Origin: Escherichia coli
GTDB taxonomy: Bacteria > Pseudomonadota > Gammaproteobacteria > Enterobacterales > Enterobacteriaceae
DNA: 64,000 nucleotides
Direction: 5' to 3' (one strand)
Assembly (NCBI RefSeq): GCF_016026235.1
Contig: NZ_CP065613.1
The position numbers and the translations under genes are program-made. The notes beneath the pieces were generated by a model. The model had not been told where the DNA came from, made no database searches, and worked only from the letters and a program-made list of their open reading frames with translations. Of this stretch, positions 10,935 to 47,528 are shown piece after piece. Positions within the stretch are counted from its first letter, which is position 1. Each line of letters begins with the position of its first letter.

Positions 10935-11186
10935 TGGAGCACCTCAAAAACACCATCATACACTAAATCAGTAAGTTGGCAGCATCACCCTCGTTATTAA
11001 AACTGGCGGAGAATGTGATTCGACATTCTCCACTCATACTAAACACACTGTCACTTGACGCAGGGCTGAAAGTTCTACAGCAACGGTATACCAATATGAT
11101 AATGGTTTACTAAATTTTCTGGGGATCCCTCAGGAGCAGTCCCCCACTCCGGCTTAACACGACAATCGCCTTTCAGCGAAACACAA

Positions 11187-11906
11187 TTACTCTTTATCGC
11201 CCAGCAGAACGGATTCCAGTGCGATTTTGATCATGTCGTTGAAGGTGGTCTGACGCTCAGCGGCAGTGGTCTGCTCGTGAGTGCGGATGTGGTCAGACAC
11301 GGTGCAGATGGTCAGGGCTTTCGCGCCAAATTCTGCAGCGACGCCGTAGATACCAGCCGCTTCCATTTCCACGCCGAGGATGCCGTATTTTTCCATCACG
11401 TCGAACATTTCGCCGTCCGGAGAGTAGAACAGGTCAGCGGAGAACAGGTTACCAACGCGAGCATCAATGCCCAGTGCTTTAGCCGCGTCTACCGCGTTAC
11501 GCACCATGTCAAAGTCAGCGATAGCGGCAAAGTCATGATCTTTAAAACGGATGCGGTTAACTTTGGAATCGGTGCAGGCACCCATACCGATAACGACGTC
11601 GCGCAGTTTTACGTGCGGCAGAACTGCGCCACAGGAACCCACGCGGATAATTTTCTTCACGCCGAAATCGGTGATCAGTTCTTTGGTGTAGATGGAGCAG
11701 GACGGGATACCCATACCGTGACCCATTACGGAAATTTTGCGGCCTTTGTAAGTACCGGTGAAGCCCAGCATACCGCGAACGTTGTTCACTTCACGGGCAT
11801 CTTCAAGGAAAGTTTCAGCAATATACTTCGCACGCAGCGGGTCGCCTGGCATCAAAACTACGTCAGCGAAATCGCCCATTTCTGCATTAATGTGTGGGGT
11901 AGCCAT
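11187..11906 (-). CDS. deoD: purine nucleoside phosphorylase DeoD
   Basis: 239 aa [31 protein letters not shown]. Confidence 0.92.
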
Positions 11907-43519: not shown

Positions 43520-44476
43520 ATGAACCCGATTGCAGTTACCCTACTCACCGGTTTTTTAGGCGCGGGAAAAACCACCCTGCTGCGCCATATTCTTAACGAA
43601 CAACACGGCTACAAGATTGCCGTGATTGAAAACGAATTCGGCGAAGTCTCCGTTGATGATCAACTAATTGGCGACCGCGCCACGCAGATCAAAACGCTGA
43701 CCAACGGCTGCATCTGCTGTTCGCGCTCCAACGAGCTGGAAGACGCACTACTCGACCTGCTGGATAATCTCGACAAGGGCAATATTCAGTTTGACCGTCT
43801 GGTCATTGAATGCACCGGCATGGCCGATCCCAGCCCGATTATTCAGACCTTTTTCTCCCATGAGATTTTATGCCAGCGTTACCTGCTGGACGGTGTGATT
43901 GCGCTGGTGGATGCGGTACATGCCGACGAGCAGATGAACCAGTTCACCATCGCTCAGTCCCAGGTTGGCTACGCCGACCGTATTCTGCTGACCAAAACCG
44001 ACGTCGCAGGCGAAGCAGAAAAACTGCGTGAACGCCTGGCGCGCATCAACGCCCGTGCACCGGTCTACACCGTCACCCACGGCGACATCGACCTGGGCCT
44101 GCTGTTCAACACCAACGGTTTTATGCTGGAAGAGAACGTCGTCAGCACCAAACCGCGTTTCCACTTTATCGCGGATAAACAAAACGATATTTCGTCGATT
44201 GTGGTGGAACTGGATTACCCGGTAGATATCAGCGAAGTTTCCCGGGTGATGGAAAACCTGCTTCTGGAATCGGCAGATAAACTGCTGCGTTACAAAGGGA
44301 TGCTGTGGATTGACGGCGAACCTAACCGCCTGCTGTTCCAGGGCGTCCAGCGCCTCTACAGCGCCGACTGGGACCGCCCGTGGGGCGATGAAAAACCGCA
44401 TAGCACAATGGTGTTTATCGGGATTCAGTTGCCGGAGGAAGAGATTCGGGCAGCGTTTGCGGGGTTGAGGAAGTAA
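43520..44476 (+). CDS. yjiA: CobW/P47K-family GTPase YjiA
   Basis: 318 aa from MNPIAVTLLTGFLGAGKTTLL; P-loop and CxCC motif. Confidence 0.9.
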   Translation: MNPIAVTLLTGFLGAGKTTLLRHILNEQHGYKIAVIENEFGEVSVDDQLIGDRATQIKTLTNGCICCSRSNELEDALLDLLDNLDKGNIQFDRLVIECTGMADPSPIIQTFFSHEILCQRYLLDGVIALVDAVHADEQMNQFTIAQSQVGYADRILLTKTDVAGEAEKLRERLARINARAPVYTVTHGDIDLGLLFNTNGFMLEENVVSTKPRFHFIADKQNDISSIVVELDYPVDISEVSRVMENLLLESADKLLRYKGMLWIDGEPNRLLFQGVQRLYSADWDRPWGDEKPHSTMVFIGIQLPEEEIRAAFAGLRK

Positions 44477-44487
44477 TTTTGGATGAT

Positions 44488-44518
44488 GGCCGCCATGGGG
44501 CGGCCTGAATTATTTTTT
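44488..44518. terminator. convergent stem-loop between yjiA and brnA
   Basis: ggccgcc-atgg-ggcggcc followed by tgaattatttttt on the plus strand. Confidence 0.4.
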
Positions 44519-44812
44519 GTTCTGATCGCGCAGCATCGCTTCACGTAAAATTGCGTTCAGGCGAGTTTGATAGCCTTTACCTGGTCGCTTCAACCATTCC
44601 ATCACATCAGCATCAATACGCACCGAAGCCTGAGTTTTCAATGGCCGATAAAACTTACCGCGTTCGGCGTTAGACCATTGCTCATCGCTGGAAGGTGGGA
44701 TATCACTGTAATCAATATCTTCGTCGGATTTATTCGCCAGCGCCTTCAGTTCGGCCTCATGCTGCACATCGAGTGTAGAGGAGGTCCCTCGTTTATGTTT
44801 AACCATGCTCAT
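44510..44812 (-). CDS. BrnA-like antitoxin (ribbon-helix-helix, COG3514-type)
   Basis: about 100 aa from MSMVKHKRG...; C-terminal SVRIDADVMEWLKRPGKGYQTRLNAILREAM is typical of BrnA; start 8 bp after the BrnT stop. Confidence 0.7.
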   Translation of the reverse strand: MSMVKHKRGTSSTLDVQHEAELKALANKSDEDIDYSDIPPSSDEQWSNAERGKFYRPLKTQASVRIDADVMEWLKRPGKGYQTRLNAILREAMLRDQNKK

Positions 44813-45086
44813 AGCGATTCCTCTCTTTACGATCTGCTTTTCGTGCACTGATGATTCGAATAATTTCATTTCCGCTTTCGAAACGGATGGTATGCGCAAC
44901 CAGAATAACCACGATGCCGTAAACCAGGCCGATTGTCTGCCAGCGATACTCACCGTTTTCTATGCGTTCTTGCTGTGACAAATGTTGTGGATCATCAAAC
45001 AATAACACCGCATCTTCAAAGCGGATGCCATGTTTCACCCGATTACTTTTGGCCTTGTTTTCATCCCATTCAAACTCCATTGGCAT
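44799..45086 (-). CDS. BrnT-like toxin (DUF497 / COG2929 ribonuclease type)
   Basis: MPMEFEWDENKAKSNRVKHGIRFEDAVLLFDDP...IRIISARKADRKERNRYE; DUF497 hallmarks FEWDxxKAxxNxxKHG and IRIISARKA; start codon uncertain (45080-45113). Confidence 0.7.
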   Translation of the reverse strand: MPMEFEWDENKAKSNRVKHGIRFEDAVLLFDDPQHLSQQERIENGEYRWQTIGLVYGIVVILVAHTIRFESGNEIIRIISARKADRKERNRYEHG

Positions 45087-45284
45087 AATTGCCATCCCTA
45101 ATTGTATATACAAAAATGTATCTACAATTATTCTGCAATTATAGCGTTGATGTTGGAAATAGCATCACGTTTCGAATAATCAACCATAAAATTGACAATG
45201 AGTAAGTTGGACTTGATTCATCCAATAGAATTTCTCGCCTGACATGGCACACTAAACACCTCGCTGTCGGGTAATGACTCCAAC

Positions 45285-45787
45285 TTACTGATAGTGTTTT
45301 ATGTTCAGATAATGCCCGATGACCTTGTCATGCAGCTCCACCGATTTTGAGAACGACAGTGACTTCCGTCCCAGCCTTGCCAGATGTTGTCTCAGATTCA
45401 GATTATGTCGCTCAATGCGCTGAGTGTAACGCTTGCTGATAACGTGCAGCTTTCCCTTCAGGCGTGATTCATACAGCGGCCAGCCATCCGTCATCTATAC
45501 TACGACCTCAAAGGCCGACAGCAGGCTCAGAAGACGCTCCAGTGTGGCCAGAGTGCGTTCACCGAAGACGTGGCCACAACCGTCCTCCGTATCCTGTCAT
45601 ACGCGTAAAACAGCCAGCGCTGACGTGATTTAGCACCGACGTAGCCCCAATGTTCGTCCATTTCAGCGCAGACAATCACATCACTGCCCGGTTGTATGCG
45701 CGAGGTTACCGACTGCGGCCTGAGTTTTTTAAGTGACGTAAAACCGTGTTGAGGCCAACGCCCATAATGCGTGCACTGGCGCGACAT
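45285..45787 (-). pseudogene. insB: IS1 insB, frameshifted and interrupted
   Basis: split into 86-aa and 69-aa ORF fragments; alignment to copy 1 shows a 1-bp deletion (cgtggccacaaccg vs cgtgcgcaacaaccg) and a stop (ctatactac). Confidence 0.7.
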
Positions 45788-45981
45788 CCGACGCCATTCA
45801 TGGCCATATCAATGATTTTCTGGTGCGTACCGGGCTGAGAGGCGGTGTAAGTGAACTGCAGTTGCCATGTTTTACGGCAATGAGAGCAGAGATAGCGCTG
45901 ATGTCCGGCAGTGCTTTTGCCGTTACGCACCACGCCTTCAGTAGCGGAGCAGGAAGCACATCTGATGGAAATGGAAGCCAC
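45706..45981 (-). CDS. insA: IS1 InsA (variant)
   Basis: 91 aa [37 protein letters not shown]. Confidence 0.8.
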
Positions 45982-46295
45982 GCAAGCACCTTAAAATCAC
46001 CATCATACACTAAATCAGTAAGTTGGCAGCATTACCAAATTTTAATTACACTTAAGGTGTATATTTTCTATGCAAGCCATCAATTAAAGAGGTGTAATGT
46101 TCTGATGACTATTTGTAATCGTTATACATTCTGACCTGGAGTCAGAAGGTATTTCTCTGTCTGTGTATTCGCAGGCAGTGTGGTTGATTACATGAAATTC
46201 AGTACATTTGTCCTTCTCGCCTGCCTTTCGTCATTACCGACGGTATTGAATTTCGTTTTCCCCATTGGGGTTCTCCGGACAAGGAGTTGTTTGTT

Positions 46296-47528
46296 ATGCC
46301 ACGTTTTTTTGCCCGCCATGCCGCCACGCTGTTTTTCCCGATGGCGTTGATTTTGTATGACTTTGCTGCGTATCTGTCGACGGACCTGATCCAGCCAGGG
46401 ATCATTAATGTGGTCCGTGATTTTAATGCCGATGTCAGTCTGGCCCCGGCTGCCGTCAGTCTCTATCTCGCTGGAGGCATGGCATTGCAGTGGCTGCTGG
46501 GGCCGCTTTCCGACAGGGTTGGCCGCAGGCCGGTGCTGATTACCGGGGCGCTAATATTTACCCTTGCCTGCGCTGCGACAATGTTCACAACGTCTATGAC
46601 ACAGTTTCTTATCGCGCGTGCAATTCAGGGCACCAGTATCTGTTTTATTGCCACCGTTGGTTATGTCACGGTGCAGGAGGCGTTCGGACAGACAAAAGGG
46701 ATCAAGTTGATGGCGATTATCACCTCCATCGTACTGATTGCGCCGATTATTGGCCCGCTTTCCGGCGCAGCTCTGATGCACTTTGTGCACTGGAAAGTCC
46801 TTTTTGCCATCATTGCGGTTATGGGTTTTATCTCATTTGTTGGCTTACTGCTGGCGATGCCAGAGACGGTGAAGCGCGGCGCGGTTCCATTTAGCGCCAA
46901 AAGCGTCTTGCGCGATTTTCGTAATGTCTTTTGCAATCGGCTGTTCCTCTTTGGCGCAGCAACCATCTCTTTAAGCTATATCCCCATGATGAGTTGGGTG
47001 GCTGTCTCGCCGGTGATCCTGATCGACGCGGGCGGCTTAACAACTTCGCAGTTCGCCTGGACACAGGTTCCGGTGTTCGGCGCGGTGATTGTCGCGAATG
47101 CCATCGTGGCGCGTTTCGTTAAAGATCCGACCGAACCGCGCTTTATCTGGCGTGCCGTACCCCTTCAACTGGTTGGCCTCGCGCTGTTGATTATCGGCAA
47201 TCTGCTGTCACCGCACGTCTGGCTGTGGTCGGTGCTGGGCACCAGTCTGTATGCTTTCGGGATTGGTTTGATTTTCCCGACCTTATTCCGCTTTACGCTG
47301 TTTTCCAATAACTTACCGAAAGGGACCGTCTCCGCATCGCTGAATATGGTGATCCTGATGGTGATGTCTGTCTCGGTCGAAATCGGCCGCTGGCTGTGGT
47401 TTAACAGCGGTCGCTTGCCGTTTCATCTGTTAGCCGTTGTGGCAGGCGTTATCGTCGTTTTCACCCTGGCCGGATTGCTTAATCGCGTGCGCCAACATCA
47501 GGCTGCCGAGCTGGCGGAGGAGCGGTGA
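46296..47528 (+). CDS. mdtM: MFS multidrug efflux transporter MdtM
   Basis: 410 aa from [27 protein letters not shown]. Confidence 0.9.

Follow-up and report, generated by a model that had tools for sequence, protein, structure and literature searches.

An inactivated IS1F element at an IS-bounded deletion of the Escherichia coli immigration control region

Introduction

InsA is a trans-acting repressor that binds the ends of IS1, and IS1 itself is reportedly a classic producer of adjacent deletions, an observation credited to Reif and Saedler in 1975. The closest described relative of the element considered here is the IS1F of E. coli K-12, which is immobile on its own and does not move at native transposase levels, but can be moved by over-produced InsAB' of IS1A/E, more often than IS1B, C, or D (PMC12903888). 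The chromosomal setting is also well known: the immigration control region (ICR) is a variable defence island between yjiA and yjiN, of which restriction-less variants have been described (PMC12707154, PMC3032704).

The sequence analysed, referred to below as the window, is a 64,000-nt stretch of E. coli chromosome (NZ_CP065613.1) with two IS1 copies, numbered here by position. An earlier note on it had described copy 2 as a divergent, non-autonomous IS1 variant. Copy 2 is located at the ICR, between yjiA-brnA-brnT and mdtM (Table 1), where RefSeq genomes show the order yjiA-brnA-brnT-IS1 (pseudogene)-mdtM; in K-12 the same interval holds mrr, hsdRMS, symE, mcrBC, yjiT/S/R, and rpnD. A literature search found no paper on IS1 at brnT-mdtM; Sibley and Raleigh (2004), on the ICR “empty site,” lay outside its coverage. 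The account favored here, with a probability of roughly 85%, is that copy 2 is a vertically inherited, inactivated IS1F at the ICR, where an IS1-dependent loss of the region was followed by decay of the element in place.

Table 1. Positions of the two IS1 copies, the parts of copy 2, and the neighboring genes (window coordinates).
Feature	Position	Strand	Basis
yjiA, conserved ICR anchor	43520..44476	+	related-genome annotation and ORF
brnA antitoxin gene	44510..44812	-	related-genome annotation and ORF
brnT toxin gene, left neighbor	44799..45086	-	mapped from related-genome annotation, and ORF
Left flank of copy 2, TCGCTGTCG; final 9 bp in common with IS1-free relatives, brnT side	45261..45269	.	
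Copy 2, complete IS1F-type IS1, 767 bp, transposase gene inactivated	45270..46036	-	alignments, identity to K-12 IS1F and p2RM10740
Copy 2 IRR, GGTAATGACTCCAACTTACTGAT	45270..45292	+	3 mismatches to IRL over 23 bp
Copy 2 C-terminal insB fragment, 69 aa, DDE_Tnp_IS1 positions 63-131	45285..45494	-	ORF and domain match
Copy 2 insB nonsense codon, TGG>TAG	45495..45497	-	alignment column 541-543
Copy 2 N-terminal insB fragment, extending into frameshifted tail	45527..45787	-	ORF, frame analysis
Copy 2 insB 1-bp deletion, GTGGCGCAC > GTGGCCAC (IS orientation)	between 45572 and 45573	.	alignment column 465
Copy 2 insA, intact, 91 aa, Zn ribbon and HTH	45706..45981	-	ORF, PF03811 and PF12759
Copy 2 programmed -1 frameshift motif TTAAAAAAC, intact	45724..45732	-	motif search
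Copy 2 IRL, GGTAATGCTGCCAACTTACTGAT	46014..46036	-	0 mismatches to IS1 end pattern
Right flank of copy 2, AAATTTTAA; first bases in common with K-12 and IS1-free relatives, mdtM side	46037..46045	.	
mdtM, right neighbor, ATG 259 bp from IS1 end	46296..47528	+	related-genome annotation and ORF
Copy 1, intact IS1A-type IS1, no target duplication	10222..10989	-	ORFs, alignment

Results and Discussion

Structure of Copy 2

Over the 64 kb, a pattern scan found IS1 ends only at 10222-10244, 10967-10989, 45270-45292, and 46014-46036, with 0 matches expected by chance. Copy 2 fits the IS1 family (about 768 bp, with imperfect terminal inverted repeats of about 23 bp, GGTRATG...CCAACTTAYTGAT) in both length and ends, with 767 bp and no mismatches to the end pattern. 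Its insA product matches both expected domains (PF03811, E = 5.8e-18; PF12759, E = 9.6e-28), and copies 1 and 2 both have the A6C motif TTAAAAAAC at IS position 305.

The earlier note had read insB as broken by a 1-bp deletion and an in-frame TAG, and had named an intact insB as what would refute it. Pairwise alignment of 10222-10989 with 45270-46036 located both lesions, with the gene left as two fragments (45527-45787 and 45285-45494). The conceptual InsAB' keeps the Zn ribbon and HTH but stops after about 150 aa, so that DDE_Tnp_IS1 is in frame for positions 1-37 only, of 131. Since insB does not give a complete DDE_Tnp_IS1 domain, copy 2 is a pseudogenised member of the IS1 family and not a functional one. 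It has the traits of a non-autonomous element, in that both ends are intact and it encodes no working transposase. Given a dead insB alongside intact ends, insA, and A6C site, movement of copy 2 would, as the earlier note proposed, need InsAB' supplied in trans. Within the window, the only possible source of this is copy 1, whose frames are both open (insA 91 aa, insB 167 aa).

No 9-bp or 8-bp target duplication is present at copy 2 (TCGCTGTCG vs. AAATTTTAA), in agreement with the earlier reading of the flanks. The 30 bp beside the element have a GC content of 17% on the mdtM side vs. 53% on the brnT side; the AT-rich mdtM-side flank fits the target preference of IS1, but is not decisive.

Isoform Identity

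Copy 2 differs from copy 1 at many positions, as had been claimed: their alignment has 768 columns with 71 differences (37 transitions, 33 transversions, and 1 gap), for an identity of 90.8%. The “several” InsA differences come to six (V4I, S7R, P9A, D15E, T69S, and I80V), in two intact ORFs of 91 aa each. The one terminal-repeat base that had been singled out is IRL column 4, which is A in copy 2 (GGTAATGCTGCC) and G in copy 1 (GGTGATGCTGCC).

The two copies belong to different isoforms. Copy 2 is identical to K-12 IS1F in 759 of 768 columns (98.8%), and has just five differences from an intact IS1 on the E. coli plasmid p2RM10740; the IS1 of Shigella pWR501 is about as near. Two of the five differences kill insB, one is synonymous in insA, one is the InsA change P9A, and one falls downstream of the frameshift. 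On the strength of these two comparisons, copy 2 is assigned to the IS1F isoform by sequence similarity. With so few differences from an intact member of its own isoform, decay can be ruled out as the source of its divergence from copy 1. The same goes for A4 of the IRL as a defect: it is normal for IS1F, being shared by every intact copy of that type, and it improves the match between IRL and IRR, which have 3 mismatches over 23 bp in copy 2 and 5 in copy 1. The same point about the symmetry of IS1F ends was made in the 2025 study of K-12 IS1 elements (PMC12903888). The label “divergent variant” therefore holds insofar as copy 2 is an IS1 variant, but not in the sense of any divergence beyond the difference between known isoforms. 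In annotation it should be named IS1F (pseudogene) rather than a novel divergent IS1.

The P9A substitution (45954-45956; IS column 80-82) lies beside the first CxxC of the InsA zinc ribbon. It was found in none of the 13 other IS1F-type copies aligned, and column 80 differs in the window alone.

Copy 1 sits inside an ISEc60 element (IS4-like) between lplA and deoD (window 9925-11300), where it replaces 821 bp of the ISEc60 interior, again with no target duplication (CGAATTACC / CTCGTTATT). Taken with the loss at the ICR described below, this means that both IS1 copies in the window are associated with a deletion. A composite transposon made up of copies 1 and 2 was considered and ruled out: their flanks have no matching 9-mers (CGAATTACC / CTCGTTATT / TCGCTGTCG / AAATTTTAA), and the 34 kb between them is ordinary core chromosome.

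The Deletion at the Immigration Control Region

Of 5426 complete genomes, 1113 have the brnT|IS1 junction. Two right junctions account for 1110 of these. In type A, the window's type (449 genomes), IS1 is joined to the native mdtM upstream region; in type B (661 genomes), a 273-bp copy of yghX-yghW sequence comes next. This copy runs from the 3′ end of yghX across the intergenic spacer into the 5′ end of yghW, of which it includes the first ~17 codons (CUVET17-972, locus 2669-2960, and five others), and it joins mdtM in frame at a CATGCCG microhomology, giving mdtM a foreign 5′ region and N-terminus. Type B strains have the native yghX-yghW locus as well.

The extent of the loss can be read from relatives that have brnAT but no IS1. 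Two of these, P19_598 and B-1109, are collinear with the window as far as ...CCTCGCTGTCG; beyond that point they carry an mrr-like restriction endonuclease gene, hsd remnants, symE, yjiS, yjiR, and rpn. On the mdtM side, collinearity of the window with K-12, P19_598, and B-1109 resumes from (C)AAATTTTAATTAC, 259 bp upstream of the mdtM start. IS1 thus stands in place of 5,813-5,814 bp (P19_598) or 6,351 bp (B-1109), and homology to the undeleted relatives stops, at base resolution, at each end of the element, the mdtM side being ambiguous by 1 bp. The replaced interval of 5.8-6.4 kb explains the missing target duplication, which the earlier note had called consistent with a deletion at one end; relatives without IS1 are indeed collinear up to the very edges of the element. 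Such exact breaks at both ends are the signature of an IS-dependent deletion, and support one here.

In the proposed course of events, reconstructed from these comparisons, an IS1F would have inserted at one or the other edge of the ICR interval. An IS1-dependent event would then have joined its other end to the far side of the interval, by intramolecular transposition (adjacent deletion) or by recombination with a second IS1. The same event would have removed the ICR together with one copy of the 9-bp duplication. Afterwards the element would have decayed in place, with tracts of other IS1 copies brought in now and then by gene conversion; at present it presumably moves only with InsAB' in trans, and even then probably not unless transposase levels are high, and it may still express InsA. 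The deletion could also have arisen in another lineage, whose entire interval this strain then acquired by homologous recombination. No precursor, in the form of an IS1F with a 9-bp duplication beside an otherwise intact ICR, was found among the loci sampled.

Allelic History at the Site

Variation among the copies at this site was followed in an alignment of 12 IS1 copies, consisting of ten ICR-site copies and two intact plasmid references. At one extreme, O55:H7 DEC5E has an intact copy (annotated “programmed frameshift” only) at the identical site, with identical junctions. Six ICR-site genomes have the TAG without the 1-bp deletion, while the window, 2017.06.04CC, and Res13-Sevr have both. 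The NCBI pipeline (PGAP) calls an IS1 family transposase pseudogene in all nine lesion-bearing copies among the ICR-site loci fetched from the E. coli genome collection, with the remark “frameshifted; internal stop” or “programmed frameshift; internal stop.”

These alleles do not sort neatly with the junctions. Type B and the type-A lineage of the window share the TAG, which the type-A copy of O55:H7 lacks. This distribution does not fit a simple event tree, so that either recombination inside IS1 or recurrent mutation is needed. Exchange between isoforms can be seen directly in one case: the 2017.20.01CC copy (433-1200 of its locus) has seven IS1A-type bases at columns 247-265 of an otherwise IS1F-type relic, and this patch is a gene-conversion tract. 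In the CUVET17-972 copy, insA has acquired an extra CAG>TAG (Q42stop, IS column 179).

Exchange of this kind lends some substance to the first alternative, in which the ICR was lost not by intramolecular transposition but by homologous recombination between two IS1F copies in direct repeat. These would have lain beside brnT and upstream of mdtM, both with a target duplication, and their recombination would have left a single hybrid IS1 with unrelated flanks. The end product would be identical, with no duplication and with homology breaking exactly at both IS1 ends. The occurrence of one left junction with two right junctions (449 and 661 genomes) is easily accounted for if IS1 acts as portable homology, and the mosaic distribution of the TAG, the 1-bp deletion, and the IS1A-type patch shows that IS1 copies do recombine. 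However, the loci examined included none in which two IS1 copies flank the ICR, and IS1 classically makes adjacent deletions in any case. The data fit either route; recombination between two copies is regarded as a serious possibility, though the less probable one. It is a variant of the favored account, an IS1-dependent loss of the ICR, rather than a departure from it.

Mobility of Copy 2 and Other IS1F Copies

A second alternative would make copy 2 something more than a relic: an active non-autonomous element, a natural “mini-IS1,” spreading by means of an IS1A-type transposase such as that of copy 1. Some observations point this way. Its ends are intact and more symmetrical than those of IS1A, and IS1F can be moved in trans (PMC12903888). 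Three unrelated loci have an IS1F with the same TGG>TAG change: brnT-mdtM, fecI-yjhU (K-12, locus 973-1740), and hchA (HN68, locus 702-1469). The 1-bp deletion, in turn, recurs at one more site, the fourth: a metagenome scan with a deletion-bearing 40-mer matched a single contig, from E. coli (OJPD01001358.1, 10843-11609). The copy there is IS1F-type with the same insB deletion, but has TGG rather than TAG; it lies between an S6-peptidase region and prophage tail genes, without a 9-bp duplication.

Other evidence is harder to reconcile with active spread. The ICR-site copy has stayed put in more than 1100 genomes, and the K-12 IS1F is static at native transposase levels (PMC12903888). The plasmid collection has only three other near-identical 767-bp copies, of which the two inspected sit in the same chromosomal context. 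These “plasmid” copies were rejected as evidence of transposition: both of those inspected are in a yjiN-mdtM-IS1-brnTA arrangement, and the third has the record length and coordinates of the first. In one plasmid record, RCS63_p (NZ_LT985269.1, 22 kb), a yjiM-yjiN-mdtM-IS1F relic-brnTA segment adjoins sul2 / aph(3'')-Ib / aph(6)-Id; this segment is either captured chromosomal DNA or a misassembly.

Nor do shared lesions necessarily imply movement. All four combinations of the TAG and the 1-bp deletion exist among IS1F copies, which points to recombination rather than clonal spread, and gene conversion, having been directly seen, can spread shared lesions equally well. The four combinations favor exchange between copies at least as much as the spread of a defective element, and the presence of the TAG and of the deletion at other loci, whether due to trans-mobilisation or to gene conversion, is suggestive but ambiguous. 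Active spread of copy 2 is accordingly considered unlikely, and the broader proposal, that IS1F forms a natural non-autonomous lineage whose TAG copies (ICR, fecI-yjhU, and hchA) were spread by IS1A-type transposase, is likewise doubtful. If it were true, one such IS1F copy would have produced the restriction-less ICR genotype of about a fifth of complete E. coli genomes, and would then have served as portable homology for cassette swaps, for example in the yghW'-mdtM fusion variant.

A third alternative concerns insA. The relic might have been kept as a domesticated regulator, with InsA repressor made from its intact insA acting in trans to dampen IS1. InsA is known to repress in trans, and both here and in most of the orthologous copies insB is broken while insA, with its start and the promoter region of the IRL, remains intact. 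Against this, insA at the ICR site is not protected, as seen from the Q42 stop of CUVET17-972 and the P9A change by the CxxC in the window, and 2017.06.04CC has further changes. Substitutions fall across insA and insB alike, as they would in neutral decay. We find this explanation very improbable.

The last alternative, that the frameshift and the stop are sequencing or assembly errors in a normal autonomous IS1, can be dismissed: although single-base indels are common among such errors, the 1-bp deletion lies outside any homopolymer, both lesions recur identically at the same site in independent assemblies (2017.06.04CC, Res13-Sevr, the RCS63_p record, and one further record), and the best 25 matches listed agree with the query at every position over 2767 bp. 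With these recurrences, and with 0 end-pattern matches expected, chance and artefact were both ruled out.

Copy 2 is an ordinary pseudogenised IS1F, already called a pseudogene in RefSeq, which sits where a well-known variable island has undergone an IS-bounded deletion. As a dead copy of a catalogued isoform it is of little import in itself. Its modest interest lies in its position, marking to the base where a restriction and defence island was lost in ~20% of complete E. coli genomes. The copies at this one orthologous site also make up a clean series of IS decay, from intact to stop to stop plus frameshift, and show gene conversion between IS1 isoforms.

Comparison with Known Systems

The nearest counterpart of copy 2 is the K-12 IS1F (insA7 / insB7 pseudogene, fecI-yjhU). 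The two have in common the isoform, the GGTAATG ends, the insB TGG>TAG, and the lack of a 9-bp duplication (GGGGATTTC / GACCATGTT in K-12), and K-12 IS1F is immobile on its own (PMC12903888), as copy 2 would be. They differ in chromosomal site, and copy 2 adds the insB 1-bp deletion and seven substitutions, including InsA P9A. The intact members of the same isoform, namely the IS1 copies of p2RM10740, Shigella pWR501, and the O55:H7 ICR site, have a full InsAB' (“programmed frameshift” only), which copy 2 is without.

IS1A / IS1R, represented here by copy 1, shares the family, length, gene layout, and frameshift motif position of copy 2, but is set apart by its 90.8% identity, six InsA substitutions, G rather than A at IRL position 4, and an intact insB.

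As an event, the loss of the ICR resembles the IS1 adjacent deletions of the Reif and Saedler type in that an IS remains at the newly formed joint, its ends mark the endpoints of the loss, and the target site is not duplicated. It differs from them in that yjiS, yjiR, and rpn, which belong to the framework of the region, are gone along with the restriction genes, and in that the event is reconstructed from present-day genomes and not one that was observed.
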